The notes: a model not told the origin generated them from the letters alone. Numbered from the stretch's first letter, positions 16,633 through 38,600 are shown. The stretch: 54,747 nucleotides of DNA from a virus (IMGVR_UViG_3300017910_000157:1-54747); one strand, 5' to 3'. Translations and numbers: made by a program.

Positions 16633-17209
16633 CTTTCAAACCAAACTCTTTATCCAAATCTATGGTAGAAGAATCCAAAACAACAGCGTCTTCTACGGGT
16701 TTAACAAGTTTTGCTAATTTAGAACGCAATCTTTCTTTTAAATCATCAGTGGTTTGATGTGTTATTGTCACTTCTGTGCGTTCTGCAAACAAACCTACGT
16801 CAGCAATCTTACCTAAAAGCTCTAAAGCACGTAATCTAGCCCGAACATCAGGACTCTCTGTCTCTTCTATCAACTTATTTGTAACGAGATGCCGTATCTG
16901 AGTAGCACTTTCTACTACAGAATGCCCAAAATTCTTTAAAATTTGATCTGTTAAGAGCAAAGATGCAGGTGTGAGGGATGCGGTACGGGCTGGGGTGGCT
17001 TTTTTGGATGTCTTCTCAGGATCTGCCGCATATGCCATAGCTAATTTTGCAGATACATCTTTGTCGTCACCATTAACTTCTACTTTTAACCCGTGTTCAG
17101 ACAAAAAATTTACAGTTGCCGCCGCCGCAGAAGCGCGTTTTGCCAAGTCTTTGGTCTTACTAGGTGGGGGTATGGGTATACCGCCTTCGGGTTCAATATG
17201 GATTGCCAT
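16625..17209 (-). CDS. Probable terminase small subunit
   Basis: Directly upstream of and overlapping terL; RLRALELLGK...GLF motif. Confidence 0.65.
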   Translation of the reverse strand: MAIHIEPEGGIPIPPPSKTKDLAKRASAAAATVNFLSEHGLKVEVNGDDKDVSAKLAMAYAADPEKTSKKATPARTASLTPASLLLTDQILKNFGHSVVESATQIRHLVTNKLIEETESPDVRARLRALELLGKIADVGLFAERTEVTITHQTTDDLKERLRSKLAKLVKPVEDAVVLDSSTIDLDKEFGLKDD

Positions 17210-17295
17210 AATCGCTATATAACTGAAACTAAATAAAACGCAAAATTTTTGTGCAGATTAATATGTATAACTAGTTGTGCGCGTGTGCGCCTAGA

Positions 17296-17317
17296 GGGGG
17301 GTGGGGGGCGGGTGGGG
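17296..17317 (+). other. G-quadruplex-capable tract
   Basis: GGGGGG-T-GGGGGG-C-GGG-T-GGGG at the divergence point of the two gene arms. Confidence 0.7.
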
Positions 17318-17340
17318 ATGCCATATCTACAGCTATATAT

Positions 17341-17368
17341 TTGACACATAGACGTATACGCGTATAAT
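17341..17368 (+). promoter_or_regulatory. Early sigma70 promoter P1
   Basis: TTGACA-16 bp-TATAAT, perfect hexamers. Confidence 0.85.
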
Positions 17369-17438
17369 GGATGACATAGCAGGGCAGATGAGCTGCCTTG
17401 TTAGTAACCTACTAACAGATCTGAGAAAGGATCAAACA

Positions 17439-18173
17439 ATGTTTAATAAACTTTTCAACGCTATTGTCAAAACAGAGACAAGTATTCCAATGATTAAAAA
17501 TAGTGAAGACGTCAATCAAGGCGCTGGCAATTGGATCATTGGTGGCGAACTAAAAAACAAGGCAGTTAAATACTGGTATGACAAAGCTGTCGAGTTAGGG
17601 CATGGATCAAGTGAAAACATCGCCAAGCTATTTGTTTGGAAGGAAGTAAAAAACAGCAATAGCATGCGTGCTTTTTACGACGATTTCAATGCAGCGTTCA
17701 TTATATACCTTGGTGGCGCTTCAGCCTATTCAGTCACATATGCGCCTGATGCTAAAAAGGTCGGACGCGATGAGCCACTATTGCCAGACGCTGGATCGTA
17801 TTGGGCAATTACTGGACGCAAAGGTCTAACACAAAATACCGCAATGGCGGGTGTTGGTGATATGCGTAAAAAGATGAGTGCTGCTTTGGTCAAATATACC
17901 AAAGAGTTGGAAGCGCCAAAGACGCCAGCAAATAAAGGCGCAGGTAAGTCAAAAACAAAGCAGCCTTTGACTGATGCAGGTATAAAATTAATGAACACCT
18001 ACGCGGAACGCCTGCAAAAATTTGATCCTAAAAAAGCGCAAGGCGCGGATAAGCATGTGGATATTGTTGAAATGATGACACTACTCGATCAGATCAGCTT
18101 ACTGCTTGCCGACGCAAACGAAAAAGCGAAGCCCAAGCCAAGAGCAAAAGCTTCGACTAAGAAACCATCTTAA
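17439..18173 (+). CDS. First early protein, unknown function
   Basis: The track start at 17367 overlaps the -10 box. GAAAGGA RBS precedes ATG 17439. The gene has its own promoter and terminator. Confidence 0.75.
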   Translation: MFNKLFNAIVKTETSIPMIKNSEDVNQGAGNWIIGGELKNKAVKYWYDKAVELGHGSSENIAKLFVWKEVKNSNSMRAFYDDFNAAFIIYLGGASAYSVTYAPDAKKVGRDEPLLPDAGSYWAITGRKGLTQNTAMAGVGDMRKKMSAALVKYTKELEAPKTPANKGAGKSKTKQPLTDAGIKLMNTYAERLQKFDPKKAQGADKHVDIVEMMTLLDQISLLLADANEKAKPKPRAKASTKKPS

Positions 18174-18179
18174 ACTATC

Positions 18180-18206
18180 GGGGAGCTTCGGCTCCCCACT
18201 TTTTTT
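18180..18206 (+). terminator. Rho-independent terminator
   Basis: GGGGAGC-TTCG-GCTCCCC followed by a T7 run. Confidence 0.9.
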
Positions 18207-18223
18207 GTGCCTAAATTTTTTTA

Positions 18224-18298
18224 ATACCAGTTATCTCTCTAGTAGTTCGCTCATACATACAAGTCTACCTATACCAGTTATCTCTCTAGTAGTTCGCT
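18224..18298. repeat. Two perfect 28-bp direct repeats with a 19-bp spacer
   Basis: ATACCAGTTATCTCTCTAGTAGTTCGCT at 18224-18251 and 18271-18298. Confidence 0.9.
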
Positions 18299-18648
18299 TT
18301 TTTAGTAATGTAACTTTTTGTGTAACCATTTTTCCCATAATGTAACTTTTTTAAATCGCATAAGATATTGTTTTATTTATATTGTTACTTTGTAACCTCT
18401 TTTAAACACACAGACTACGTAAGAGAACTCTCGACAAGAAAAAGCATATTCCTCCCTCGAAGCACAATCCAAAATTACCCCCTCACAGTGTCCTCAGAAA
18501 AGGTTACAAAGTAACATTGCTTTATTATCAGACACTTAAGCGGTTTTAAAAAGTTACATAATAGGTACTATAGGTACATTGTAGTGTTAGTAGTGTTACT
18601 AACAGTATATGTCTGTGTTTGATCCATATACCTTGATATATGCAACGC

Positions 18649-18677
18649 TTGACAAACACATACATATATAGTATAAT
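18649..18677 (+). promoter_or_regulatory. Early sigma70 promoter P2
   Basis: TTGACA-17 bp-TATAAT, perfect consensus. Confidence 0.9.
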
Positions 18678-18711
18678 GTAGGCACATTCAAAAGACAGGA
18701 GTATACGTTCA

Positions 18712-18990
18712 ATGTTACAAAAACTAATCAAGGCCTTTCGACTGTTAGTGACCCCACTAACACCATCGTCGGAACTGGCATATCAGGTATCTAGACAGAA
18801 AGCTGTCTGTGTCGATTGCGGTTCTGCATACGACATACGCCGTTACTATCTCGGCTACCCTCTTTGCCTAGATTGTGGAGAGACGTCTGCACGAGAAGTA
18901 AAACACTGCATAGTCCCGCTGCACAAGGGCAACTACACTGTGATCACTCGCAAGTCAGACTTGCTACATCTAAACCAGAAGCCAAACTAG
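18712..18990 (+). CDS. C4 zinc-finger protein (DksA/TraR-like finger)
   Basis: CVDC-x15-CLDC; AGGAG RBS upstream. Confidence 0.6.
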   Translation: MLQKLIKAFRLLVTPLTPSSELAYQVSRQKAVCVDCGSAYDIRRYYLGYPLCLDCGETSAREVKHCIVPLHKGNYTVITRKSDLLHLNQKPN

Positions 18991-19006
18991 AAGGAGTGTT
19001 AGTAAA

Positions 19007-19243
19007 ATGACTAACAAAGAAGACACCGTTATAACGGATCTAGCCACTGATCTAATCATAGAGATACGTGCACTTATGAGAGACGCATATTTGCACGGGT
19101 TCAACGCTAGTCGTGAAGGCTACAATTCTGAGTATCCATTCAGTGACAATAATTGGAAGCCTGACTGTCAGTCTGACTGGATCGAGAGAAGAGACAACGT
19201 AGTCACACAAATACTAAAAACTGGAAGTGGAGAAATTCAATGA
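19007..19243 (+). CDS. Hypothetical early protein
   Basis: AAGGAG RBS; GF.AS.EGYN.EY motif. Confidence 0.65.
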   Translation: MTNKEDTVITDLATDLIIEIRALMRDAYLHGFNASREGYNSEYPFSDNNWKPDCQSDWIERRDNVVTQILKTGSGEIQ

Positions 19244-20166
19244 ACATGCAAACCATAAACCCAACATCAACGGCTGTTAGTAAAGCTACTAACATAGACA
19301 ACTATGCCTCTCTCAGTTCGTCAACGTCACTTGTAGAGTTGTCTATCGGACAATCCACTGGACGCAAGAAAGACAAGCGCGCATCCGAAGAATTGTGTGA
19401 TACCAAGGGCGCAAGTAAGAAAGCTGCGGCTGTACACAAACGTCTGTTCGGGGAGTGCGATGAGTTGGACGCTATCCAAAAATGCGTGTCTGCAGCGAGA
19501 CGTACACATGAGTTTATGACTGTGCCTTGGGGCAACCTTGGTCAACGCATGCTCACAACTATGCAGCGTCCGAAGTACATCGAAGAGATGACTGGTTTTC
19601 AGAATGAGTTTCACAAACTTGTCGAGGAGTTTGGTCAGGCACATCCAACCATTCTCAAAAACGTGTCTCAGGAACTGGGCGCACTGTATGACCCCAACGA
19701 TTACGAAGATTGGTATACACTACGCAATAGGTTCCGCTTTACTTTGCGTCATTGGCCTACACCCGACACAGGTGACATTCGCACTGATTTACCGAAACAA
19801 GCGTTGGAAGAGATGAAGGCTGACATGGAAGCCGCGATACAAGAGAATCTTGTAACAGCAAACAACAACCTATGGCAGCGGCTGTCTAAGGTTTGCAAGA
19901 ACATGTCTGCACGACTAGAGCCAACCACCGACGGAAAGAAGCAACGTTTCAATGACACACTTGTCTCTAACGTCGAGGACATGGTGGAGTTGATGCGTAC
20001 TCTTAACGTTACCAATGATCCACAAATGACACAGACCGCAAATCGGATCGAAGATGTGCTGCGGGGAATCACCCCTGATGCACTTCGTGAAGACGAGTAT
20101 ATGCGAGATGAAACCAAACGCGAGATTGATGACGTACTCGCATCACTACCCAACTTAGACATCTAA
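19240..20166 (+). CDS. DUF3150-like protein
   Basis: L.I..STGRKKD, HKRLF and TVPWG..G.R motifs; helical; upstream of an AAA+VWA pair, the usual DUF3150 context. Confidence 0.55.
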   Translation: MNMQTINPTSTAVSKATNIDNYASLSSSTSLVELSIGQSTGRKKDKRASEELCDTKGASKKAAAVHKRLFGECDELDAIQKCVSAARRTHEFMTVPWGNLGQRMLTTMQRPKYIEEMTGFQNEFHKLVEEFGQAHPTILKNVSQELGALYDPNDYEDWYTLRNRFRFTLRHWPTPDTGDIRTDLPKQALEEMKADMEAAIQENLVTANNNLWQRLSKVCKNMSARLEPTTDGKKQRFNDTLVSNVEDMVELMRTLNVTNDPQMTQTANRIEDVLRGITPDALREDEYMRDETKREIDDVLASLPNLDI

Positions 20167-20218
20167 TCGTTAGTGAAAACACTAACACAATTCAAACCAT
20201 AAACAGGAGAACAAAATT

Positions 20219-21328
20219 ATGGTAAACTTTAACAACACCGCTTCATTCATGCATGCACAAGACTTGGATAGCTGCGTGAATTGTATCGCTGCACTTGGGC
20301 ATCAAACTACATACATGTTGCAGGGTGACATAGGTAACGGCAAGTCAGCTACACGGCATATGCTCAAGAAGATGTTTCCTAATCACAGAGTGTTCTATCT
20401 TGATTGCACCACAAAAGATGTGGGTGATCTGATGCTGCCGAAGATCATGGAGATGGACGAGAACGATCAGTTTGTGCGCTACGTACCAAACGAAGAGATT
20501 GGTCTGCATATGAACGGACCAGTCATTATCATGGTCGATGAGTTTGGCAAGGCAAACAAGTCTGTGCAGAACGCACTGCTATGTCTCATGTACGAGCGCA
20601 TGATGGGTAGCCACACATTGCACCCTGATACCATCGTCTACGCTACGACTAACCTTGGTTCAGAAGGTGTCGGTGACTTGCTTCCTCCACATACACGTAA
20701 CCGTATGGTTGTGTTGACTGTGAAGAAATGGAACGCTGAACAGTGGATCGGTTGGGGTATCAACAATGGTATTGACCACAACGTCTTGTTGTTTGCGAAA
20801 GAACATCCAGAGATCTTTCATTCATTTACAGAAACACCTGACCCCGAAAGCAACGAGTATATATTTCATCCGAAGGTACAACGTGCAGCATTCATCACTC
20901 CAAGATCATTGGAGAATGCATCACATATTGTGAAGGTTCGAGATAGGCTTGGCAAGAGTGCAACCACAGCGTCACTGATCGGGTGTCTTGGTGATCGCGG
21001 TGGTCTAGACTTGTCTGCACAGCTTTCGTTAGCAGATCAACTAACACCACTGGATGAGATTAAGAACAATCCAAATACTGCAACAGTCCCAACCAATGCG
21101 GCAGCTATCTGTATGATTATCTATCGTACACTGTCCAACATTGATCGGTCATGGATTGATGCATGGATGGACTACTTCAACCGCCTACCTGCCGAAGCAC
21201 AGGGTATGTTCGTGAACGGTGTCTATGCAGAGAAGTTTGACGAGAAGAAAAGAGCTATGATCTGCTCTAACCGTAAGTTCACAGACTTCACTATGGCAAA
21301 CCCTCACCTTCATGCGGCAGATGTGTAA
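20219..21328 (+). CDS. MoxR-like AAA+ ATPase
   Basis: Walker A GDIGNGKS, Walker B IIMVDE, sensor ATTN, NR finger, TPRS motif. Confidence 0.85.
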   Translation: MVNFNNTASFMHAQDLDSCVNCIAALGHQTTYMLQGDIGNGKSATRHMLKKMFPNHRVFYLDCTTKDVGDLMLPKIMEMDENDQFVRYVPNEEIGLHMNGPVIIMVDEFGKANKSVQNALLCLMYERMMGSHTLHPDTIVYATTNLGSEGVGDLLPPHTRNRMVVLTVKKWNAEQWIGWGINNGIDHNVLLFAKEHPEIFHSFTETPDPESNEYIFHPKVQRAAFITPRSLENASHIVKVRDRLGKSATTASLIGCLGDRGGLDLSAQLSLADQLTPLDEIKNNPNTATVPTNAAAICMIIYRTLSNIDRSWIDAWMDYFNRLPAEAQGMFVNGVYAEKFDEKKRAMICSNRKFTDFTMANPHLHAADV

Positions 21329-21356
21329 TGGAAGCTGCACACTTGGAGGAAGAATA

Positions 21357-21536
21357 GTGAGCGACGAATATATAAAGGCTCTCGAACACTGGGCCAAGTG
21401 TTTTCGCAGCGGACTAGCCGACGATCAGTTTGCAGATGAAATAGCCTACTTGCTTGAAGACAAGGCACACGATCTCAAACTAGCTAAACAGGAGGTAACT
21501 GATGATGGATTGGTATCTGATGAAAGAGAACGGTGA
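21357..21536 (+). CDS. Hypothetical early protein
   Basis: GGAGGA RBS before GTG 21357. Confidence 0.55.
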   Translation: MSDEYIKALEHWAKCFRSGLADDQFADEIAYLLEDKAHDLKLAKQEVTDDGLVSDERER

Positions 21537-21657
21537 CACGTTCTGGACGCAATGTGAGAGCCGTGAACAGGCTCTTGCAGACGCCGCTATGTGGGGTGCC
21601 GAGCTAATTCGGCAAGCCAACATTGTAGAAGCTGCACACTTAGAAGAGGAGGAGTGA
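21502..21657 (+). CDS. 51-aa hypothetical protein
   Basis: Not in the ORF track. AGGAGG RBS; MMDWYLMKENGDTFW...HLEEEE; TGATG coupling to the next gene. Confidence 0.55.
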   Translation: MMDWYLMKENGDTFWTQCESREQALADAAMWGAELIRQANIVEAAHLEEEE

Positions 21658-21779
21658 TGTTGGCACGTAACTCGACCAATTTTAAGTGTAGTATCTGTAA
21701 AGCCCCTGCACTTTGTAGTCACCGCAACCAATGGTGGTGCGCGGTATGCTGGCTAAACTTTTTCAAGAAGGAGAAATAA
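21657..21779 (+). CDS. 40-aa zinc-finger peptide
   Basis: GAGGAGGAG RBS; CSIC...WCAVC. Confidence 0.55.
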   Translation: MLARNSTNFKCSICKAPALCSHRNQWWCAVCWLNFFKKEK

Positions 21780-21781
21780 TT

Positions 21782-23056
21782 ATGATAGACAGACTTATAC
21801 TCACAGGAAATCTCACACTAGATCAGCGTATGCACAAGAACGTGATGCGCCTTATGAGAGATGCGCCTGAGATCGCAGCGATACTCGTAATCGGTGATCG
21901 TGAGATTATAGACGACGATGCAACAGCGTGTACAAATGGTCGTGACGAGTGGTATAGTCGAGCCTTTTGCGACAAACAAAACGATGGACAACTAAGGTTC
22001 ATTATCATCCACGAAAACTACCACAAGATGTTCAGACATCTTATCACATGGGCGCATCTGTGGGAGATTGATCCGCAACTTGCAAACATGGCTATGGACT
22101 TCGTGATCAATTACATAATTTGGGATACGTATGGTGAAACTGATCTGGTCGATTGGCCCGAAGGTGGTCTGTACAACCCTATGTTTGCAGAGTGGGATAC
22201 AGCGCGTGTGTTCTGGTATCTACACAAAAGAAAGAACACACCCGACTTCCCGGCAAACGTACATCCCAAGACAGGGACAAGTACACCTGTTAGTGGAGAC
22301 ACTAACGACATTGCCACTGGTGTCGATACTAATAAACCATTCCGCGACAAGCACGACTTTGAAGGCGCGAAAGATATGCCATCTAAAGACAAGAAAGATC
22401 TAGAAAAAGAGATCGACGAAGCTAATCGTCAGGGTCAGCTTGTGGCAGGTAAACTTGCGGGTAAGACTGGAGTTGATAACACCAAACACCTTAAAGATTT
22501 ACTTAAACCTGTGGTAGATTTTCGTGAACAAATCAGAGAGTTCGTTACAACCAACTGCAATGGCAAAGACTTTGGTACGTGGAGAAAGTTGAACAGAAGA
22601 TACATTGGTTCGGGCATTATGATGCCATCTACTATCAGTGAGACTGTCGAGGCTCTCGTATGTGCAGGAGATATGTCTGCATCTATTGGCAACAAAGAGC
22701 GGCAGATAATCATCGGTGCAACAGCAAAGGCCGCACAAGATGTTTTGCCCGAAGAGATGCATGTGCTGTATTGGACAACTGAGGTAACTGGTGCAGAGAA
22801 GTATGAGCGCGATGAGTTGGATACTATTGAAGATCAAACAAAACCAGTCGGGTTTGGTGGCACTGATCCACGTTGCATCCCTGCGTATCTGCGAGAACAT
22901 CAAATCAAACCTAATGCAAGCATCGTTGCCACAGATGGACACATCTGTGACTGGGGCGAGTGGGATCATCCGGTGTTGTGGGTGATCATTGACAACAAAA
23001 AATGCATACCGCCAGTCGGCAAGTATGTGCATGTAAGTTCAGGAGACTTAGTATGA
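21782..23056 (+). CDS. DUF2201-type HExxH metallopeptidase + VWA domain protein
   Basis: TACTNG, HENYH, N.AMD..IN; MIDAS DMSAS, GGTD, TDG; AAGGAG RBS before ATG 21782. Confidence 0.85.
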   Translation: MIDRLILTGNLTLDQRMHKNVMRLMRDAPEIAAILVIGDREIIDDDATACTNGRDEWYSRAFCDKQNDGQLRFIIIHENYHKMFRHLITWAHLWEIDPQLANMAMDFVINYIIWDTYGETDLVDWPEGGLYNPMFAEWDTARVFWYLHKRKNTPDFPANVHPKTGTSTPVSGDTNDIATGVDTNKPFRDKHDFEGAKDMPSKDKKDLEKEIDEANRQGQLVAGKLAGKTGVDNTKHLKDLLKPVVDFREQIREFVTTNCNGKDFGTWRKLNRRYIGSGIMMPSTISETVEALVCAGDMSASIGNKERQIIIGATAKAAQDVLPEEMHVLYWTTEVTGAEKYERDELDTIEDQTKPVGFGGTDPRCIPAYLREHQIKPNASIVATDGHICDWGEWDHPVLWVIIDNKKCIPPVGKYVHVSSGDLV

Positions 23057-23145
23057 AAATTGATAGACAAGACTGGATAATCTTTGCCTTAGTGGTCATC
23101 ATGGCGGCTGTGTTTGTTACGCTGGTAAGTTGGGGTGTGATATAA
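23053..23145 (+). CDS. 30-aa membrane peptide
   Basis: AGGAG RBS, ATGA overlap; WIIFALVVIMAAVFVTLVSW. Confidence 0.5.
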   Translation: MKIDRQDWIIFALVVIMAAVFVTLVSWGVI

Positions 23146-23148
23146 ACG

Positions 23149-23388
23149 ATGATTGAGTTTATCACGATATTGTTCATCGACTATGAGGTTCCAGAATACA
23201 ATATGGCTCCAATGGCAAGTGTGGTCTATGCAAAAGAAGACCACTGCCAACAAGCAATGGATAGGGGTCTAGCTGACCCCATCTACGACCACCTTATGGA
23301 TTTGTACGGTAACGACATGATGATGTGGTGTCATGTAACAGATCAAGTGTCAGTGTATGTTAGACCGAGGGCGAGACCAGATGGCTAA
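23149..23388 (+). CDS. Hypothetical protein
   Basis: 79 aa, two Cys, C-terminal RP.ARP. Confidence 0.6.
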   Translation: MIEFITILFIDYEVPEYNMAPMASVVYAKEDHCQQAMDRGLADPIYDHLMDLYGNDMMMWCHVTDQVSVYVRPRARPDG

Positions 23389-23518
23389 CAAAAAGAAGAA
23401 GGGCCAGATGAAACAAAGAAGACGTCTGGCAGATATGTGTATGTACAAAGCGCAAAAAGAAACTGTTAGTAAAACGACTAACAAAAAGAAAATCAAAAAG
23501 GAGAACAACAATGGGTAA
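23381..23518 (+). CDS. 45-aa Lys/Arg-rich peptide
   Basis: Not in the ORF track. MANKKKKGQMKQRRRLADMCMYK...; overlaps both neighbours and fills the gap. Confidence 0.5.
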   Translation: MANKKKKGQMKQRRRLADMCMYKAQKETVSKTTNKKKIKKENNNG

Positions 23519-24389
23519 CTTTACAAGCACAACATACTGCCCTGTCAATGAATTGGATCACACACCAGATAGCAAAAATCATCTACAAGACCATGGGACG
23601 CGCGTGTTCCGCGAGCGCGTTGAGAAAGAGATGAAATGCAAGACTTGTTATCGTGACAGTAAAAGTGCGTGGGTCTATCGTGAAGGTGACAGTTTTACAC
23701 TTGGCTACCTTGGTTTCATGGATAAAACCCGCAATAGTGTAAAAAACAACACTAAGTATACGTGTGTGTCTAAAAACATCGTCAACTGGAAGTACACCAG
23801 CGGTCAAGATCAACATCATATGGCAGGCTCTACTGATCTAAACAAAGCCGTAAAAAATGCCAAACGCTACTTTCGTCCTTGGTCACCGTTTGAAATTGCA
23901 TCCATCAGCTTTGGGTTACTTCGACGTGCATTTTCTGACGTGCAGTTTGAAGTAGATCAGGCATACTCTACTCAGCTTCAAGAGTTCACAAACTCATTTA
24001 CACAGAAAGGTGACGTGTTCCAAGAGATGGGTCTGCTCCTGTCTAGCAACTACGATTTCAAATATCCGTCAGTGCGTAACATGGTACAGAAGATACACGA
24101 TGCGTTAGATGATGTGAAAGAAAAGAAAAAGCGTGATCCCATACACAAATTTGTATACATACGTGATCGTATGGGGAAACAAGAGGTTGGCACTTTTGAT
24201 ATCGACGCAAGTCAATATTATTTTTCTCCCGAAAAATACAACCCCGAAGATATTACATTCGTAGACGTGTCTGAAATAGATGAAGAGTTGGCTCGTAAAG
24301 TGTCGTCTCTTACTGGCCTAAAACAGAATGGCTACATGGACGGCATTGGTTTTAAGGCAGCAGACAATTGCTACTACGTCACGAAATAA
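23511..24389 (+). CDS. Hypothetical early protein
   Basis: AAGGAG RBS; 292 aa. Confidence 0.75.
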   Translation: MGNFTSTTYCPVNELDHTPDSKNHLQDHGTRVFRERVEKEMKCKTCYRDSKSAWVYREGDSFTLGYLGFMDKTRNSVKNNTKYTCVSKNIVNWKYTSGQDQHHMAGSTDLNKAVKNAKRYFRPWSPFEIASISFGLLRRAFSDVQFEVDQAYSTQLQEFTNSFTQKGDVFQEMGLLLSSNYDFKYPSVRNMVQKIHDALDDVKEKKKRDPIHKFVYIRDRMGKQEVGTFDIDASQYYFSPEKYNPEDITFVDVSEIDEELARKVSSLTGLKQNGYMDGIGFKAADNCYYVTK

Positions 24390-24567
24390 AAAATAAAAAA
24401 ATTTACACGCACCTCCTATAATATGGGGAAGTGCGTGTTATTATGATTATAACGACAATCGCTTCTGCTAAAGTGTGTCGTTACAGAGAGTGTGTCTTAG
24501 GGAAAGCTATCCTTATATAAGCTAAGGCACACTCTCACTTTACCTAACACAGATAAAATAGTAACAT

Positions 24568-24873
24568 ATGTTTGTGGGATTATACTGCAATCATATCGAA
24601 AACAAATCCGATTGTTTATCGTATTTGCAAAACGAAAGCATATATCGTGTTTTCGTCGATCCTATACACCTACATATTGAAATTGTAAATTTTGATGTAT
24701 TTCCTCTTGAAACAGATGTAAAAGACCTGTATATAGATGAAACCGATCTACCAGATTGGATCAAAAGAAAACTATCGGTGCTTCTGTTTTGTGACTGGAA
24801 GCGTAAATCGGTAACAGAGATAGATGGTGTGGGAAGACGTATTGATGAACATACGTTTTGGATATATAAATAA
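24568..24873 (+). CDS. Hypothetical protein
   Basis: LPDWI..KLSVL and GVGRRI motifs. Confidence 0.6.
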   Translation: MFVGLYCNHIENKSDCLSYLQNESIYRVFVDPIHLHIEIVNFDVFPLETDVKDLYIDETDLPDWIKRKLSVLLFCDWKRKSVTEIDGVGRRIDEHTFWIYK

Positions 24874-25152
24874 TTTTGATGCCAGTTTTTTGGATTGGAC
24901 CTCCCTGTGTTCACGAAGGGTTTTCCACACGGACGAGGCGGCGTGTGGTCCGAACCGCCTCACGAAATTAGTTTGCGGCGGGGTTTTCCTTCTTACCCGA
25001 ATTGACACCTTGATGGGCGGTGGAGACCGCGAAGCCCATCGTAACCCCAGTCGGCGGTGGGTGAGATATGTGCCTTCAAAAACACCGACAGCACAGGCGT
25101 TGATCACCTCATACGACATTGGCGTGACTGTGTATTGGGGGGCGTAGTAGAC

Positions 25153-25905
25153 ATGTCTGATATTGGTCAAGAATTAGAAATGTTGAAGAGACGTGCGGTT
25201 TCTGCTCAACGCACAGGTCAACGTCCCCCAACGTCTTTTACTAAAAAACAAAAGCGGAATTATGCAGCCATACATAAAGTAATAGAAATAGATCTTAAGA
25301 AAGCTGACCCTTATGAGCTTGTCACAGATGAATTTCTAGAAACAGCGGACGACTACGAAGATGAATTAACCGCTTACGAGCTGCAGTCCTACGTAGACTC
25401 CATACTTTCCTCTGTAGATGTCTGTGTGTGTAACAATGCGTTTGTCATTCCTGTTGATAAACGTGAAATCCCCGAAGACTATGTGGGAAACGCTGCAGAT
25501 AATAACAGGGGTCATAAGTTCACTTACGAACAAGAAACATTTATGGAAGAATTAGCTCGGAGAAAAGAGCTAAAACGAAAAGCGAAAGAGAAGTCAGATG
25601 CAGCCGCTCGGCACCTTGAAGCGTGTCATAAATATCAGGCTCGGAGGAAAGCGTATAATTTAAAAAGAGCTTTATTAAAGGATTACGCATTCAGACGGTT
25701 TCCAAACAAAGATAGAAGGAGGGCATCAGGTATGAAATACGCAGTTGTATATAACAATCAACCTATACGTGAAACGAACAGTACAGTCATATATTTTAAA
25801 ACGTTACGCGAAGCAAAAGCGGCTAGAGCTAACTTGCTGCTTAAACATGGTTTTCAGCCCGAAGACATAGAAATACTAAAAACATTTGGTAAGGATAACA
25901 TATGA
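25153..25905 (+). CDS. Hypothetical protein
   Basis: Probable ATG at 25153 after a G-rich RBS-like stretch; ATGA overlap with the next gene. Confidence 0.6.
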   Translation: MSDIGQELEMLKRRAVSAQRTGQRPPTSFTKKQKRNYAAIHKVIEIDLKKADPYELVTDEFLETADDYEDELTAYELQSYVDSILSSVDVCVCNNAFVIPVDKREIPEDYVGNAADNNRGHKFTYEQETFMEELARRKELKRKAKEKSDAAARHLEACHKYQARRKAYNLKRALLKDYAFRRFPNKDRRRASGMKYAVVYNNQPIRETNSTVIYFKTLREAKAARANLLLKHGFQPEDIEILKTFGKDNI

Positions 25906-26186
25906 CACCCGAAGCAAAGGTTAAACGTAGGATTACTGCCAAATTAAAGGACATGGGCGCGTACTACTTTTATCCGATGACAGGTGGGTATGGGCGTAGC
26001 GGTGTGCCTGATATTGTTGGTTGCTATAGGGGTATGTTTTTCGGGATCGAAGTTAAGGCAGGGAAGAACAAACCAACAGCTTTACAGATGAGAAATTTAC
26101 AAGAGATAGAAGCGCAAGATGGAATAGCGCTCGTGGTCAATGAAGATAATGTATCTCGTGTAGAGGAGTATCTTAATGGGGGATGA
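25902..26186 (+). CDS. VRR-NUC domain nuclease (resolvase-like)
   Basis: E, G.PD, IEVK and T..Q motifs. Confidence 0.85.
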   Translation: MTPEAKVKRRITAKLKDMGAYYFYPMTGGYGRSGVPDIVGCYRGMFFGIEVKAGKNKPTALQMRNLQEIEAQDGIALVVNEDNVSRVEEYLNGG

Positions 26187-26370
26187 TACAAAATTATCTC
26201 CAGCCGACGAAGCACTTTTGCGTCACCTACGTCAAGAGGTAGATTACTACCAAGATGAAAGTTTAAGGACGCAATTTAGGCACCCGAATGTCAACCAAGA
26301 TTGGGATCGGGCAAGAAGAGAACTCAAAGAGTTTGTAACTAAACTGCGTATCGCAGGAAAAAATGTTTAG
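26176..26370 (+). CDS. Hypothetical protein
   Basis: GAGGAG RBS; ARRELKEFV..LR..G motif. Confidence 0.6.
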   Translation: MGDDTKLSPADEALLRHLRQEVDYYQDESLRTQFRHPNVNQDWDRARRELKEFVTKLRIAGKNV

Positions 26371-26379
26371 GAGAACATA

Positions 26380-26937
26380 ATGGTTAAGAAAGTCAGAACA
26401 ACTAAAGCAGATAAGATTTGGGCCTACAAAGTTAAACACCCAGAGGCGTCTGCAAAAGAGATTGCAAAGGCAACGAAATCATCAGCCGCATATGTATGGA
26501 AGTTGATGGAGAAGATCGGTACGCCAAAAGAGGTGCTAGAAGCGCCGAAAAATGTAGTGATGACTGAACATATGGATCTGACCCAAAAGATTGCAGAGAA
26601 GTACACGATCACTCGTAAAGCGCCAGAGGGCGCAATACCATCCAAGACAACTATGGATGAAATAGAAAGTAGATCACGTAGAGGTATTCTCAGGAAAGCC
26701 GAAACACTTGTATGTAAGGATCGTGCAGAAGAACATGGTGATGCTCACGACAACTTTGCAACAACAGCGAAGTATTGGAATGCACATCTTGGCATTGATT
26801 GGATTGAACCGAGTGACGTTGCTATTATGATGGCAATGCTCAAGATGGCTAGACTGCGTTCTAAATTAGAAAACGTAGAAAACTATCAAGATGCCTGTGG
26901 TTATATGGCACTGGGCGGCGAGATGCGTCCAAAGTGA
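26380..26937 (+). CDS. N-terminal HTH-like domain + DUF6378-like domain
   Basis: SAKEIAKATKSS..YV HTH pattern; R...HGD...NF...A..W...K.AR...D..GY. Confidence 0.65.
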   Translation: MVKKVRTTKADKIWAYKVKHPEASAKEIAKATKSSAAYVWKLMEKIGTPKEVLEAPKNVVMTEHMDLTQKIAEKYTITRKAPEGAIPSKTTMDEIESRSRRGILRKAETLVCKDRAEEHGDAHDNFATTAKYWNAHLGIDWIEPSDVAIMMAMLKMARLRSKLENVENYQDACGYMALGGEMRPK

Positions 26938-28757
26938 GTTTTGTTACATTAGACTTTGAGACCTATTACGACAGACAATACACGTTAAAAAAGCTCACGA
27001 CAGAAGAGTATGTGCGTGATAATCGTTTTGAAGTAATAGGTCTTGCTATAAAAATTGACGACAGTCCGACCATGTGGGTAGAGGGTGCTGGTGACGTTGA
27101 AGGTTTTCTATCAGAGGCAGACTTCTCTGAGAGTATTATACTTTGTCACAACACGATGTTTGATGGCGCAATACTTAATTGGCACTACAATATTAAACCT
27201 ATGGCATGGTTCGACACGCTGTGTATGTCAAGGGCATTACATGGAACAGAGCAAAGCGTTGCGCTGAAGAACGTGGCTGCGCGGTACGGCGTTGGTGTAA
27301 AAGGTGATGAAGTACAGAACACTATGGGTAAACACCTAGATGACTTCACCAGAGAGGAGTTAGATAGGTTTGCAGAATATGCGATCAATGATGTTGATCT
27401 GACCTACGAGATATTCAGACACATGCAGCCTACGTTCCCGCAGCAGGAACTAGAGTTAATTGATCTCACATTACGCATGTTTATAGAACCTATGTTACGT
27501 CTAGATCTCGCGGGTTTACAAGAACACTTGTCAGAAACACGTATGCGTAAATTAAATTTACTGAAGACAGCTAACGTATCGCGCGAAGAGTTGATGTCCA
27601 ATCCGAAGTTCGCGGTGCTACTTGAAAGTTTTGGGGTAAAACCCCCTACAAAGATCAGCGCACGAACAGGTAAAGAAACTTTTGCTTTTGCCAAATCAGA
27701 TGAAAAGTTCAAAGCGTTACTCAACCATGAAGACGATAGGGTGCAAGCGTTAGTAACTGCAAGGTTGGGTACTAAAAGTACCTTAGAGGAAACTCGTACA
27801 GAGAGATTTATAGGGATCGGTCAACGTGGCACGCTTCCCGTACCAGTTCGCTACTATGCTGCTCACACAGGACGGTGGGGTGGGGATGATAAAATCAACC
27901 TGCAAAACCTGCCAAGTCGAGGTCCAAACGGTAAAAGACTAAAGAGTAGTATTATCGCACCCGAAGGGTACAGTCTTATAGATGCCGACAGTTCGCAAAT
28001 TGAAGCGCGTGTATTAGCGTGGTTGTCAGAGCAGGACGATCTCGTCCATCAGTTTGCTAACGGTGAAGACGTCTACATAAAAATGGCGAGTTCTATCTAC
28101 GATGTTCCCGAAGATCAGGTTACGAAAGACCAGAGGTTTGTTGGTAAGACCACCATCCTCGGCGCGGGATATGGGATGGGGTATTTAAAGTTTGGGGCGC
28201 AACTTAAAACATTTGGTTATGAAGTATCCAAAGCAGAAGCAAAACGTATTATTAATGTTTACAGAGAGACGTATCCAGACATACAGGATCTTTGGCAGGC
28301 CGCAGGCCAGTGTGTAAAAGATATGTACAACAACAAAGTATTTAGGTTCGGTCGTAAGGGGGTAATTGAATTAGACGTGGATCAGAATGCCATTGTCTTA
28401 CCCTCTGGTCTAAAGATGTTTTATACTGACTTAGCCACCACAACAGAGGAGGACCGAACCGAGTATCACTACAAAACCAGAGAGGGGCGCACTCGAATAT
28501 ACGGTGGGAAGGTGGTAGAGAATGTCTGCCAAGCTATCGCTCGTTGTATAATTGGTGAACAAATGTTAAATATTTCCAAGAAATACCGCGTAGTTTTGAC
28601 AGTGCATGATAGTATTGTTTGTTGCGTAAAGAATGCAGAGTTAACTGACGCACAGGTATACGTGGAGAGTTGTATGCGTGAGACACCAGAGTGGGCTTTA
28701 GGACTGCCTGTTGACTGTGAAAGCGGTGTTGGTAGGTCATATGGAGAGTGCGAATAG
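26934..28757 (+). CDS. polA: DNA polymerase family A with 3'-5' exonuclease
   Basis: Exo DFE, HN..FD, Y...D; TGR; motif A DSSQIEAR; motif B K.TILG.GYG; motif C VHD. Confidence 0.95.
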   Translation: MSFVTLDFETYYDRQYTLKKLTTEEYVRDNRFEVIGLAIKIDDSPTMWVEGAGDVEGFLSEADFSESIILCHNTMFDGAILNWHYNIKPMAWFDTLCMSRALHGTEQSVALKNVAARYGVGVKGDEVQNTMGKHLDDFTREELDRFAEYAINDVDLTYEIFRHMQPTFPQQELELIDLTLRMFIEPMLRLDLAGLQEHLSETRMRKLNLLKTANVSREELMSNPKFAVLLESFGVKPPTKISARTGKETFAFAKSDEKFKALLNHEDDRVQALVTARLGTKSTLEETRTERFIGIGQRGTLPVPVRYYAAHTGRWGGDDKINLQNLPSRGPNGKRLKSSIIAPEGYSLIDADSSQIEARVLAWLSEQDDLVHQFANGEDVYIKMASSIYDVPEDQVTKDQRFVGKTTILGAGYGMGYLKFGAQLKTFGYEVSKAEAKRIINVYRETYPDIQDLWQAAGQCVKDMYNNKVFRFGRKGVIELDVDQNAIVLPSGLKMFYTDLATTTEEDRTEYHYKTREGRTRIYGGKVVENVCQAIARCIIGEQMLNISKKYRVVLTVHDSIVCCVKNAELTDAQVYVESCMRETPEWALGLPVDCESGVGRSYGECE

Positions 28758-29422
28758 TGTCAGCTTGGTCCTTCAGTAAGTTAAAAAGTTTTGAGACGTG
28801 TCCAAAACAGTTTTATCATTTGACTGTATTAAAAGAGTATCCGCAGGAAGAAACCGAAGCGATGCTCTACGGTACAGCTATGCACAAAGCAGCGGAAGAT
28901 TACATAAAATCGGATACACCACTTGATCCGAGGTTTGATTACGTGAAGGACGCTTTGGATGAACTTAAAGAAATACGAGGTGTTAAACTTTGTGAAAAGA
29001 AAATGGGTCTTACAAAAGAATTAAAACCATGCGGCTTTTACGATAAAAAAGCATGGTTTCGTGGTATTGTAGATTTAGCAATCATCGACACTTTGGCGGA
29101 GCGAGCGTGGGTTGTGGACTATAAGACAGGCAAGTCTACACGATATGCAGATAAAGGTCAGTTAGAGCTGATGGCTTTGAGTATCTTCAAAGAATACCCT
29201 GAGATCAAGTATGTGAATGCTGCACTTCTTTTTGTTGTTGCCGGGGAGCTGATAGATGACGCCTATCATGTAGACAACTCTGTGGCTATGTGGGGGAAAT
29301 GGATTACGAAACATGATAAAATGCAAAAAGCATTTGATACGGATGTCTGGAACCCACGTCCATCAGGGCTATGCAGGCACCACTGTCCTGTTGTAGAATG
29401 CGCTCACAACGGAAGGAATTAG
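28748..29422 (+). CDS. Cas4/RecB-like PD-(D/E)xK exonuclease
   Basis: WSFS..., CP, G...H, E, G.VD, DYKTG, QL; C-terminal Cys cluster. Confidence 0.8.
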   Translation: MRIVSAWSFSKLKSFETCPKQFYHLTVLKEYPQEETEAMLYGTAMHKAAEDYIKSDTPLDPRFDYVKDALDELKEIRGVKLCEKKMGLTKELKPCGFYDKKAWFRGIVDLAIIDTLAERAWVVDYKTGKSTRYADKGQLELMALSIFKEYPEIKYVNAALLFVVAGELIDDAYHVDNSVAMWGKWITKHDKMQKAFDTDVWNPRPSGLCRHHCPVVECAHNGRN

Positions 29423-29424
29423 CC

Positions 29425-29721
29425 ATGCCCTATGTAAACAAGCCGCGCCCCTACAAAAAAGAATACAAACAACAAAAAGCCAGAGGCGAACACTCTGACC
29501 GCATGGAGCGCCAACGTGCGCGTCGAGCGATGGACAAGACAGGTAAAGACGCCAACAAAAATGGCAAAGCTGACAAGCGCGAGGGTAAAGATATTGCCCA
29601 TAAAAAACCATTGAGTAAGGGCGGTAAAAATAAAGATGGGTACAAAATTCAAAGCCGTAAGAAGAATAGAGCGGCAGGTGGTGCTTTAAGCAAAGGCCCG
29701 AAAAAATATAAAAAACGTTAG
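29425..29721 (+). CDS. Basic HNH-like protein
   Basis: GGAAGGA RBS; R.YKKEY, GKDIAHKKPLSKGG.N...S...NR. Confidence 0.6.
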   Translation: MPYVNKPRPYKKEYKQQKARGEHSDRMERQRARRAMDKTGKDANKNGKADKREGKDIAHKKPLSKGGKNKDGYKIQSRKKNRAAGGALSKGPKKYKKR

Positions 29722-29746
29722 TAGATTACTAACAAAGGGGAACATA

Positions 29747-31198: not shown

Positions 31199-31597
31199 AT
31201 GGTGTCTATATCTATAGAAGACCTTACTCGCACATACTTAAACCTGCGAACCGAGCGTTCTATTTTGTCTAAAGAATATAAAGACAAAGACGCAGAGCTA
31301 ATAGAAGCGCAGGAAAAAGTAAAAGCTGCTTTGTTGCAGCATTGCGATGAACAAGGTCTTGAGAGCGTCAAGACTTCTGAGGGGTTGGTGTACAAAACTA
31401 CAACAGAAAAATATTGGACCTACGATTGGGAACGTATGCATGAGTTCATACTAGAACATCGTGTGCCAGAGTTGTTAGACAGACGCATCAATCAAAAACA
31501 TCTGAGGGAGTTTTTAGAGGACAACCCCGAACTACTACCAAAGGGGTTGAACAAAACTGTAGACGTATCTGTAACTGTGAGGAAACCCACACGATGA
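31199..31597 (+). CDS. Conserved replication-module protein
   Basis: GGAG RBS; coiled coil plus SVKT..G, DW and LL..RI motifs. Confidence 0.65.
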   Translation: MVSISIEDLTRTYLNLRTERSILSKEYKDKDAELIEAQEKVKAALLQHCDEQGLESVKTSEGLVYKTTTEKYWTYDWERMHEFILEHRVPELLDRRINQKHLREFLEDNPELLPKGLNKTVDVSVTVRKPTR

Positions 31598-35645: not shown

Positions 35646-38600
35646 TTAAAAGTAATCTGCTACGGGATCGCCGTATCTTGCTGCATCTTCTAAAATTCTT
35701 TGTCTTAGTCGAGGTGTTATCGTCGTTCCTTGAAAAGACGTTTCTCTACCACGTATTCTACCCTTTATAGATCTCTCTAAATTATCGTAAAGTATTGGGT
35801 AATCTGGATAAGCCTGATTATATTTCCCAATCTTTTCTAACGCACGTTGAATGCCCTTCGCGTCTTGATCAAAGTAAGCTCTGGCGTACATGTCATACAG
35901 TTTACGTCTACGTTTAGCCACGCCCTTTTGCATTCTCATGGCACGCGCATTTGTCTCCATCGCTGCGCTATATGCTGTAGGTGTAAACCCAAAAAACTGA
36001 CCTGCGATATGGGCAGGGTGTATGTCTTGAATAATCGGTTTACCATCCCGCGTATATGCACCGCCTTCATATAGGTCAGAATATCGTATTGCTCTTAGAC
36101 CGTTTTTCATCGCTGCTGGCATAAGCGTTTCGGCTGCACGGTATATCCGATCACTGTCACCTGCACCAAATCCCGCGCTCATCTCTCTTATCCCACGATC
36201 TGTATTTAAAGCAATACCTACAAGTGGGCCACCAAATTGTTCAGCCCATGAATAAAACAGCGGCTGGTTTTTTTGCACCATCGGATCTCTAACTAGAAGC
36301 TCACCCAACCCAATCCTACTAGCCACGTTCACACCTGCATAGTAGTTTACAGCCCCTTTATACGGCCCATCATCGAGGTACGCACGTACCATAGTTTTAG
36401 CATCGTCATCTTCACCTCCGGGGTCGTACCCTGCCAGTGACATAGCTGTATCTGCCGCCATAGTGAAAAGACCAAAACCCGGTACACCTTGCACTCCTGC
36501 TAACAACGAAGCTGATCCGTATATACCCACCATTTGGGACAAAGCTACCATACGATCTTTTGCCGAACCTCTGACCATTTTGGTTGCTAACTCTATTAAC
36601 ATACCTGTCATAGACACACCAAAACGTTTATACATAAATACAACTGCGCCTAAATTAGTTTTAGCGAGGGGTGGAGCCGCACCTGCAGCTATGCCGCCGT
36701 TTGTTGTCTCTGTCTCATACACAGCTTGTTGCATGGCTTTTTTAAGTTGTTGTACATCTGCTCTATCGGCAGGGGACATTTTATTTACGATACCACCATA
36801 TGCAGTTAACAACGCCACTTCGCGGTTTATACGTTCTCCGTGAAATTGCATGAACCCTGTAATCTTGTTAAATTTTTGCCAGCTACCACTCATGCCCTCC
36901 ACGTCCATAAGTTCATAGTCTGCTGACCGTTTGAATTGCCCTAACTCTGCGCCTATTTCTTGAAATACTTTAAACTCAAGTGACCGTTTTGAATCCTCTA
37001 CATTTATATTCATTTTTTTGAGGGCTTTTACTTGTTCTTTAGTTAGAGCATCAGGATCTATATTGATCATGCCTAATGGTCCGTCCACCTCTGCATCTAT
37101 CTCGCCACCATCAGGACCATATGTTTTTAATTTACGTTTGTACCCACTATTTTTTATTAAACTCATACTTGAGCTTACACCACGAAAGGTTTGACCATAA
37201 CCATACTTACCACCGAAGTACGGCACTGTAACCAGAGGTGTCTGGGACAAGTTTACCAGTGCGCCTGAAACGTTTAGACCAAGCGTCATATTAAAACCTA
37301 CGCCAGTCAACGCGCGTGAAGTTTTACTGCGCTCAGGCATTGCCCCATCCTTCACATACCCATCAAGCGCTCTTAAATAAGCTGCCTTCGCAGGGGTTTG
37401 ACGCGGGTCAGCTTCCATCTCCTTTTGTATGGTAGAAAAAGCTTGTTGTAGTTTGGCCTTATATTTCATGTTTACGATCTGACGAACCATAGATCGTGAG
37501 CTATCACCTATCTCTTTTATTGAGTCTTGATTGAAACCCATGCGTGCTTGTATGAGATCGCCACCTTTACGGTTTCTAAACGATTGTAAATATGAAGTTT
37601 CTGGTAAAGTATCTAAAACAAGATTGCCTATCTCTTCTCGCATCTCTGAAGAGATTTCAGGGTTTTTTTGTAACTGGGTCATCAAATCTTTGACAAAAGA
37701 TGCAGGGGGGGACTTGTCTACAAAAGTAGATATTTTTAATCCTTGTTCTCTTTCAGGATTCATAAATGCCTTTATAGCGGTGGCTCTGTCGAATTGACCC
37801 GTATTTATACGGCTATCTATCTCATTTTTAATACGTGCAGCCCCTGCATTTTCTGGAAGCTGCAAGTCCTGTGGAGACATCTCACTCGCCGCATCATAAG
37901 CTTCGTTTATCTCTTTTTCTGCATCTGCTTGTATAAGTGCAGCGGCTTTATCTCGTGCATCTGGTCCTGTAAAGTTGTCTGTGTATCTCTCCACTCTCCC
38001 CGTTAAAGGATCTACAGCGTTTACAGAGAACCAGTAATCACCATCACCGCGTTTCAGTGGGGAGTATGGATCAAGCATACCACCCTGTACAAGTTTGTCA
38101 TAAAATGAAGTGCGTATAGTTTTTCGCTGCTCTGCGGGTATACCTGATGCTTCTAATCGAATGTCTAGAGCATTGTTTAATTCTTCGACCATACCTTTAA
38201 ACATAGCACGGGCTTGTTTATAGAGCTTTATACCTTCTCCATTACGTTGCTTCTGTAGTCGCACGTAATCTTTCTTGAGGGGCTTATATATGGTGTTATA
38301 TACAACTGCTGTGTATTTCTTTTTAGCGGCTTCTGGCGACAGCACGGGATCTACTCTATATGCTGTACCTACAGTATTAAGACGGTTAAAGGCATCCACA
38401 TCTTTCTGACTGGACTTTTTAGCCCAACGTACAATCCCATCGTTTACAGCATTAACCTTATCGTAAAACTCTTGAACCTCTCCCCCCGCTTGGTTCATCA
38501 AGTCGTTTATTCTTCCCGCGCTTGGAGCGAACTGTTTTGCAAGTCGTACTATATAATGAAGCGGAGTGATCTGAAGTATGCCACGTCTACCCAAATCAAA

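Follow-up and report, generated by a model that had tools for sequence, protein, structure and literature searches.

The first early gene of a group of uncultured marine podoviruses and a palindrome repeated through their early genes change together. The stretch analysed here, referred to as the window, is the IMG/VR record IMGVR_UViG_3300017910_000157 at its full length of 54,747 bp, and the palindrome, GTTAGT-N5/6-ACTAAC, occurs in it ten times. The sites are confined to the early arm, stand in conserved places in relatives, and switch jointly with the first early gene (gene 1). We propose, at about an even chance, that the gene-1 product has the ten palindromes as its cognate DNA sites and that together they form a multi-site operator. 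An early operator of this kind was among several hypotheses in the original prediction, a note made from the sequence of the window, and it is our leading reading.

Ten palindromes in the early arm

Rightward genes span 17.4-35.6 kb of the window and form its early arm. All ten copies lie within 17.4-29.7 kb of this arm, nine of them in 17400-23482 (6.1 kb). Nine match exactly, while 100 dinucleotide shuffles averaged 0.02 matches and never came to nine. The tenth, at 21028, reads GTTAGC...ACTAAC and has a single mismatch. No further copy was found across the 54.7 kb with up to one mismatch and spacers of 3-8, and the leftward late arm has none. The original prediction had listed these ten copies, had packed nine into 6.1 kb and had seen none by eye in the late genes. 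The whole-window scan bears this out, and the contexts that it had assigned, from the leader and the flanks of P2 to the ATG overlap, DUF3150, AAA, the linker and the helicase, are correct. The copies and the signals near gene 1 are as follows (nt, nucleotides; aa, amino acids; ORF, open reading frame).

17341-17368, plus strand: P1, sigma-70-like promoter (12/12) that drives gene 1
17400-17416, plus strand: copy 1, N5, with a closing A-T and a centre of 3 nt; gene-1 5' leader, 22 nt ahead of the ATG at 17439
17439-18173, plus strand: gene 1, first early ORF, 244 aa; positional counterpart of the co-varying gene-1 family and proposed binder
18180-18197, plus strand: T1, intrinsic-terminator-like hairpin with T run, 3' of gene 1
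18586-18603, plus strand: copy 2, N6; 46 nt upstream of the P2 -35 box, downstream of T1 and of an origin-like region
18649-18677, plus strand: P2, sigma-70-like promoter (12/12) that drives the remaining early arm; copies 2 and 3 lie on either side
18744-18761, plus strand: copy 3, N6; near +60 relative to P2, within the first part of ORF 18712-18990
18998-19015, plus strand: copy 4, N6, innermost A..G unpaired; overlaps the ATG at 19007
19276-19293, plus strand: copy 5; in frame in the variable DUF3150 N-terminus (VSKATN), 36 nt into the gene
20169-20186, plus strand: copy 6; between genes, with 33 nt to the ATG of the AAA gene
21028-21045, plus strand: copy 7, degenerate, with one arm mismatch and the weakest fold of all; within the AAA gene, without counterpart in the closest relative L005
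22289-22306, plus strand: copy 8; in-frame VSGDTN in the peptidase-VWA linker of DUF2201, where the relatives L005 and L006 have VIDPDN
23465-23482, plus strand: copy 9; 29 nt before the ATG at 23511
29717-29733, plus strand: copy 10, N5; 14 nt before the SNF2 helicase ATG; the helicase of L005 is preceded by the word of L005 itself

The copies form up to eight pairs around a centre of 3-4 nt, or of 6 nt in two exact copies that lack the innermost pair. Five have a 7-bp stem with a 4-nt loop, and two are of the 7-bp/3-nt or 6-bp/3-nt type. The nine exact copies are predicted to fold at -5.4 to -9.2 kcal/mol as RNA and -3.5 to -6.0 kcal/mol as DNA. Outside the core, T stands at -1 in 7/10 copies and A at +1 in 9/10. 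The innermost pair is A..T in four copies, G..C in three and unpaired in the other three, which confirms the covariation pointed out in the original prediction; among the nine exact copies, three G would face three C by chance once in 84 cases (p about 0.01). Moreover, isolated half-sites outside the ten copies are scarce. Nine were counted, against 30.7 +/- 5.6 in dinucleotide shuffles (0/300 as low) and 16.3 expected under a 5-mer/4-mer model, which places the half-site as the 46th most depleted of 1958 words.

P1 and P2 are the only promoter matches above 10/12 in the early arm, where 34 promoter-like sites were counted vs 40.9 in shuffles. Terminator-like sites with at least six G-C pairs number three in the whole arm.

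Each relative has its own word

Searching IMG/VR with the AAA protein of the window gave a first set of 26 loci at 44-68% identity. A search with a DUF3150 alignment gave 426 related stretches, of which 80 loci were fetched as a second set; some of the loci, labelled L005, L006 and so on, share a contig. The exact word of the window is present in some of the 26 loci and missing from others, including the closest, L005 and L006. A de novo count of inverted repeats showed that every locus of the first set has its own multi-copy palindrome, and in 99 of 104 sources examined a single palindromic 6-base arm recurs at least four times. The next-best unrelated arm in the window has two copies. By the terms of the original prediction, absence of the motif from relatives would have refuted it; the motif is present in them.

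An early arm carries 5-12 sites, and the number differs between close relatives (11 in L012, 5-6 in L019). In the four complete relatives (62-67 kb), all sites of the own type fall within blocks of 2.5-12 kb. For the most part the outer GTTA...TAAC is constant, and positions 5-7 vary together with the complementary partner arm. The arms GTTAGT, GTTAGC, GTTAGG, GTTAGA, GTTATC, GTTATG, GTTATA and GTTATT were observed, as well as the other types GTAGTG, GTAGTT, GTAGGG, TTTACG, GCGTGG, ATGACC and TGTATA. Among 149 unique copies, the stem and loop are 7 bp/3 nt in 69, 7 bp/4 nt in 21 and 6 bp/3 nt in 20.

In 26 copies from seven genomes, 94.7% of cells were paired, compared with 77.6% after shuffling (0/500), and both sides had changed at three of eight pairs. 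Judged from these sequences, the dyad is maintained, and a hairpin and a two-fold protein site are both compatible with the pair count. Flanks beyond +/-1 are unpaired: within genomes, positions -2/+2 gave 72 Watson-Crick pairs vs 129 expected, below shuffles. A preference for G-T wobble in one-mismatch copies, examined by eye, was dropped, the cases being too few to tell the strands apart.

The places are conserved even where the word is not. Most places are common to the window and L005: before gene 1, the AAA gene and the helicase, after P2, and within the DUF3150 N-terminus and the DUF2201 linker. At the DUF3150 N-terminus the peptide encoded over the word is VSKATN in the window, VIDIDN in L005, VSQPLT in L021 and GSDSLQ in L023. 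In places that lack a gap between genes, the word is thus written into the reading frame and the peptide altered accordingly, which points to selection on the nucleic-acid word. In the literature searched, supplements excluded, we found no description of the motif, of the gene-1 family or of their link, in agreement with the earlier suggestion of an undescribed element.

Gene 1 changes with the word

A natural swap is seen in the pair L021 and L023. Their AAA proteins are 99% identical, yet the word is of the GTTAGTC type in L021 and of the GTAGTGA type in L023. The two are 89-93% identical in DNA across 18.7 kb with the exception of about 1.2 kb. This segment carries the first early gene, whose products of 202 and 204 aa are unrelated by BLAST, together with a small membrane ORF. 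Every one of the 10-11 sites differs between them, and the places are identical. The words likewise differ between L011-13 (GTTAGGG) and L015/19/27 (GTTATAC), with AAA proteins 93-97% identical. The small ORF, which encodes a C-terminal membrane helix, follows gene 1 within the swapped segment (7836-8114 in L021, 7955-8125 in L023).

The first ORF after the first site encodes 167-317 aa (18 sequences), and the majority belong to one fast-evolving family. Co-variation was counted in 64 dereplicated loci, whose pairs are not independent. All 12 multi-member gene-1 clusters have a uniform stem. Among pairs with DUF3150 at least 85% identical, those with similar gene 1 share the stem in 57 of 58 cases, the odd pair being an artefact of the class rule. 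Pairs with dissimilar gene 1 have a different stem in 27 of 35 cases and the same stem in 8; six of these eight exceptions are wrong gene-1 calls (those of L061 and L093 were corrected), and another pair has loops of unequal length. Separate switches of gene 1 and stem number at least four. In the full alignment a central helix, KRYWQQQIGA-like in all GTTAGTG phages, varies in step with the word. As read from these sequence comparisons, the firm new result is that gene-1 identity tracks the word. The original prediction had named the first early protein (17439-18173) as one of several candidate binders, and it is the counterpart of this gene that co-varies with the motif in relatives.

The gene-1 product is predicted to be a helical homodimer. 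The family comprises at least 192 metagenome protein clusters, none of them named. The model of the L010 protein is all-helical with nine helices (predicted local distance difference test score, pLDDT, 72.6). Prediction of a homodimer gave an interface score (ipSAE) of 0.85 in three runs, the best control reaching 0.00; the partner pLDDT was at least 81 and the runs agreed in at least 93% of contacts. In a calibration that is only rough, a custom alignment having been used, 20 of 30 solved homomers and 1 of 23 single chains attained this mark. The terminal helices make up the predicted interface, and most of the basic helix stays free.

A proposed multi-site operator read by the gene-1 protein

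We infer that the gene-1 protein binds the sites, that its target is DNA rather than RNA, and in which direction it acts. Host polymerase would start at P1, and the gene-1 protein would be made first. As a helical homodimer it could read both arms of a site through the conserved basic helix. It would then occupy the 5-12 sites at its own gene, at the origin-like region, around P2, and before or just inside the early genes. Most likely it would dampen or shut off early transcription by blocking host polymerase, and it may also silence phages of the same specificity that arrive later. Exclusion of same-type phages would account for the rapid joint change of the protein and its sites.

Several positions are signs of a DNA target. 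For gene 1 of L012 and L023, the best promoter-like site is located downstream of the first copy. The first palindrome of 28 of 44 loci begins 17-77 nt past a conserved G-rich tract, and no rightward gene precedes it. In the window, the copy at 18586 sits between T1 and P2. The original prediction had taken the innermost covariation in favour of a hairpin rather than an operator, which fails to generalise: pooled over eight genomes that vary on both sides, 28 innermost Watson-Crick pairs were found vs 28.7 expected, and L089 tolerates the single-arm deviations G..G and C..C. Taken together, the predicted dimer, the avoidance of half-sites and the absence of pooled covariation favour a duplex site.

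A number of observations weigh against the operator proposal. Some concern the sites, since a symmetric dimer leaves their asymmetry unexplained. The middle base of 3-nt centres on the plus strand is C in 58 copies, G in 15, A in 10 and T in 9, and whole centres are biased as well (GACTC vs GAGTC 10:0, CGCCG vs its complement 5:0, ACT vs AGT 14:4). The 3' flank is A-rich (87, 53 and 50% A at +1 to +3), T stands at -1 in 67%, and 12 of 85 loci, the window included, mix N5 and N6 spacers. Within the window, the innermost covariation speaks in favour of a single-strand or asymmetric reading. Moreover, the promoter calls in relatives are consensus matches in phages whose hosts are not identified.

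Other points concern the protein. The gene-1 family has no Pfam match and no recognisable DNA-binding domain, and Foldseek with the L010 model against PDB and BFVD gave no match at E <= 0.001, the best in BFVD being an uncharacterised phage protein (E = 0.055). Gene 1 of the window is tied to the family by position only: hhalign against the family gave a probability of about 1% (the same value was obtained between the family and gene 1 of L021), and a search of 5.8 billion proteins returned the protein itself alone. Its AlphaFold model, made without an alignment, is unusable (pLDDT 39). Finally, the same GTTAGT core stands beside gene-1 proteins of the window, L010 and L021 that are unrelated by BLAST.

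Other readings of the palindromes

An unlikely alternative is that the palindromes act as 7-8-bp hairpins in early mRNAs, bound by the gene-1 protein, and control terminator read-through or translation and mRNA stability. The order of P1, hairpin, gene 1 and T1 in the window may be compared with the promoter, nut site, N gene and terminator of phage lambda. All copies are oriented with the genes and their centres are strand-biased. The nine exact copies form stable predicted folds, and loop length varies within genomes. A dimeric protein would be no obstacle, as MS2-type coat proteins are dimers able to bind single RNA hairpins. A start codon with a ribosome-binding site follows 11-30 nt after the end of 65 of 175 copies (not dereplicated), compared with 10% of random positions in the same regions. 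However, intergenic gaps are just 35-50 nt, and the proximity to start codons may reflect where a non-coding word fits. The copies 20-36 nt inside the DUF3150 frame are ill-placed for control of translation start. Three terminator-like sites in the arm are too few to require ten copies, and the lack of pooled covariation and the deviations tolerated in L089 also speak against this reading. The boxB-like role offered in the original prediction is compatible with the copy at 17400 but not with that at 18586 between T1 and P2, nor with the first copies that in L012 and L023 lie upstream of the promoter-like site; the first copies directly after the G-rich block in 28 of 44 loci add to this difficulty.

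It is doubtful that the palindromes are promoters of the N4/LUZ7 type, extruded by supercoiling and read by an unrecognised polymerase or by host polymerase with a gene-1 cofactor. In the accessible part of PMC4496689, the stem of N4 promoters measures 5-7 bp and the loop, centred at -11, measures 3 nt. That of PMC9163698 describes nine early hairpin promoters in LUZ7, along with middle ones whose stems have 6 bp or more and whose loops have 3-4 nt. The geometry here agrees with both, as far as these sources describe it, the 7 bp/3 nt class accounting for 69 of 149 copies. In 58 of 92 three-nt loops the central base of the template strand is G, which is also found at N4 position -11, although the loops of the window deviate. 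The first copy stands at the very start of the arm, two tandem copies accompany the origin-like repeats in relatives, and the only named relatives of the AAA protein, 71 phage records in total, are for the most part N4-like phages; identity stays below 60% throughout and is 24-28% in the 30 listed.

What this reading lacks is its enzyme, which also holds for the extruded hairpins of the original prediction. PF00940 was matched in 0 of 5 genomes (the window and the four complete relatives), in a search that was equally silent in control genomes, and Pfam and PHROGs gave no RNA polymerase family over the scanned ORFs. The sole transcription-related match is a weak one to a sigma factor (phrog_1025, E = 0.0035) in ORF 31199-31597. 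A giant protein was considered in this respect:

35646-42164, minus strand: 2172-aa protein; its C-terminal ~680 aa are PLxRFG/DarB-like, as in ~60-kb podoviruses

For its first 1500 residues the nearest Atlas clusters are LPD39/LPD22/LPD38/LPD5 (scores 0.93-0.85). It has HExxH near residue 1018 and neither motif B/C nor DxDxD polymerase patterns, and comparison with PDB sequences gave a chance match alone (E = 0.15). It is probably an injected polyvalent counter-defence protein of several domains, and its gene stands beside ejection-protein genes. The accessible part of the report on the related CRP-901/902 phages likewise gives no RNA polymerase gene (PMC10149686). Moreover, the window has two perfect host-type promoters, the copies in the DUF3150 frame would start transcripts past the start codon, and about 18 copies have only 11-16 nt to the ATG. 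In a variant that we hold to be slightly more doubtful, the dimeric gene-1 protein would read the extruded hairpin of one strand and hand it to host RNA polymerase in the manner of a sigma factor; with no phage polymerase involved, transcription would shift from the two promoters of host type onto about ten private ones.

There is a small chance that the palindromes serve a host factor or replication, for example as priming or loading signals for the primase-helicase on one strand, with gene 1 a hypervariable hitch-hiker. Copies flank the origin-like region, in most relatives they stand 6-7 nt before its ACCAGTT repeats, and the strand bias would fit; first early phage genes are often hypervariable for non-regulatory reasons. 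However, the words differ despite 99% AAA identity and 89-93% DNA identity that includes the other early genes, the gene-1 segment is the sole non-homologous part in the 18.7 kb compared, and the sites are limited to 2.5-12 kb instead of being spread over the replicon.

Finally, it is highly improbable that the palindromes are cassette boundaries or self-spreading elements, uniform through copying and without a reader protein: the L021/L023 swap does begin near the first copy and end just past the copy at the origin-like repeats, and copy number is unequal in close relatives, but the copies are 17-18 nt long with no common flank beyond +/-1 to 3, stand in orthologous places and are written into frames rather than forming new sites, accompany promoters only at P1 and P2, and copying alone leaves the strict link to gene 1 and the avoidance of half-sites unexplained.

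Comparison with known systems

If the palindromes are operator sites of the gene-1 protein, the nearest known logic would be the operator/stoperator system of Cluster A mycobacteriophages. In geometry the N4/LUZ7 hairpin promoters come closest. In the accessible part of PMC9283540, the repressors of L5 (gp71) and TipsytheTRex are described as having many cognate sites in promoters and short intergenic spaces. According to the same source, stoperators are oriented with transcription, have been proposed to stop both initiation and elongation, and permit new immunity specificities; they are asymmetric 13-mers, more than 20 in number and genome-wide in temperate phages, bound by a monomer with a helix-turn-helix (HTH) and a second (Stoperator) domain. 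As far as this description goes, one protein (here proposed) with many intergenic sites is common to both, and the sites studied here, 5-12 per early arm, have a strand-biased centre and 3' flank. They differ in being dyad-symmetric with a variable 3-4-nt centre and in being restricted to the early arm. The gene-1 protein, in turn, is a predicted dimer without a match to an HTH or a known fold. In addition, the window has no integrase match: PF00589 (tyrosine integrase) was not matched in it, while the control was matched in 14 of 14 genomes.

With the N4/LUZ7 promoters, as described in the sources above, the sites share a stem of 5-8 bp, a loop of 3-4 nt and about ten copies upstream of early or middle genes; a central template G is seen in most three-nt loops, but those of the window deviate. 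N4-like phages and the present clade also have an AAA and VWA gene pair in common. Here, in contrast, no phage RNA polymerase was found, host-type promoters are present, and the stem, constant throughout a genome, co-varies not with a polymerase but with a small early protein.

In phage lambda a boxB hairpin precedes the first early gene, a terminator follows it, and the specificity of N and boxB differs among related phages. Lambda has two sites per genome and a small, disordered, arginine-rich N protein; the phages studied here have ten sites in the window and gene-1 proteins of 167-317 aa without a Pfam family, predicted to be folded helical dimers. Unlike nut sites, many copies lie upstream of promoters or within reading frames. 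In the T7 group, an early RNA polymerase, expressed by host polymerase, serves about ten class II promoters, two of them at the origin, and its specificity varies between relatives. An early product with about ten proposed sites before the next genes, two at the origin included, is a likeness, whereas the 170-270-aa protein is not a polymerase and the sites are palindromic. In the PeSL cassettes of T4-type phages each unit has its own early promoter, and here only 2 of 10 copies are near one. We know of no co-varying protein for PeSL or for the SAS/ESAS elements of Cluster K.

The clade is large (426 IMG/VR stretches) and lives in seawater, a habitat in which most early genes of phages cannot be read. 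A protein family without a recognised fold appears to carry a sequence-specific nucleic-acid code, which can be read from natural swaps of helix and site. If the operator proposal is true, these phages would hold a set of orthogonal protein-site pairs. The timing of early genes in lytic marine phages, the exclusion of close relatives and the joint switching of specificity between a regulator and ten sites thereby become testable.

Genome and further observations

The window comes from an uncultured seawater podovirus that is distantly HTVC023P-like. The record is linear, with an estimated completeness of 89%. The early arm encodes the family-less 244-aa first ORF, small ORFs, DUF3150, an AAA_5/MoxR-like ATPase and the DUF2201 peptidase-VWA protein, followed rightward by a family A DNA polymerase, a PD-(D/E)XK nuclease, the SNF2 helicase, a small HTH protein, a gp2.5/Enc34-like single-strand-binding protein and a DUF927 primase-helicase. 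The remaining genes run leftward (terminase, portal, virion proteins, tail fibres and the 2172-aa protein). The triad of DUF3150, AAA_5 (MoxR-like) and DUF2201 (peptidase and VWA) at 19240-23056 is kept in all relatives; DUF3150 was assigned through them, 10 of 13 aligned members giving a match (best E = 6.9e-8).

By portal, the closest named phages are the Pelagibacter phages HTVC023P and HTVC027P and podoviruses of Planktothrix, Roseobacter and Caulobacter, at 32-44% identity. The nearest of these is HTVC023P (42%). It was rejected as a carrier of the same system, as it has neither the AAA/DUF3150 module nor such a palindrome. Megablast of the window against 50,697 phage records gave no near-identical DNA match. 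The early region 17200-24600 is present in 20 seawater DNA runs, and none of the RNA runs searched contained it.

Across the whole window ATCGAT, CACGTG, CCCGGG, CGATCG, CGTACG and GAATTC are absent, 9-20 copies of each being expected, which looks like restriction-site avoidance. Two ORFs, 26380-26937 and 29371-29721, resemble those of L009/L010 (58% and 86%) more than those of L005 (37% and 70%), which is otherwise the closest relative; this is a sign of mosaic exchange in the replication module. They had also been considered as clues to the binder and were dropped: the pattern fails for L021, and the L021/L023 swap points elsewhere.

The origin-like region at 18222-18580 consists of two ~28-nt direct repeats with ACCAGTT (18226, 18273), AATGTAAC-type iterons and AT-rich DNA. 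The ACCAGTT units are kept in relatives, in most of them with ATGTTCG-type iterons. A palindrome copy stands 6-7 nt upstream of each unit in most relatives, not in the window.

Upstream of P1, the window has at 17245-17317 a conserved block cagattaatatgtataac (attagtaatatata-like in relatives) and then the G-rich tract with four G runs (17296-17317). The tract was found in 44 of 44 loci with gene 1 placed, and the whole block in every relative read by eye. No sigma-70-like site was seen in the block, a possible genome end, packaging signal or quadruplex-forming signal. A fixed spacing between the first copy and the gene-1 promoter was considered and given up, as the distances range from -56 to -103 and the automated calls of promoters and gene starts are unreliable. 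The gene-1 leader of the window contains a second small hairpin, GGCAG-N5-CTGCC at 17383-17397, just before copy 1, and GC-rich hairpins are also present in the gene-1 leaders of L005, L040, L084, L062, L041 and L075.

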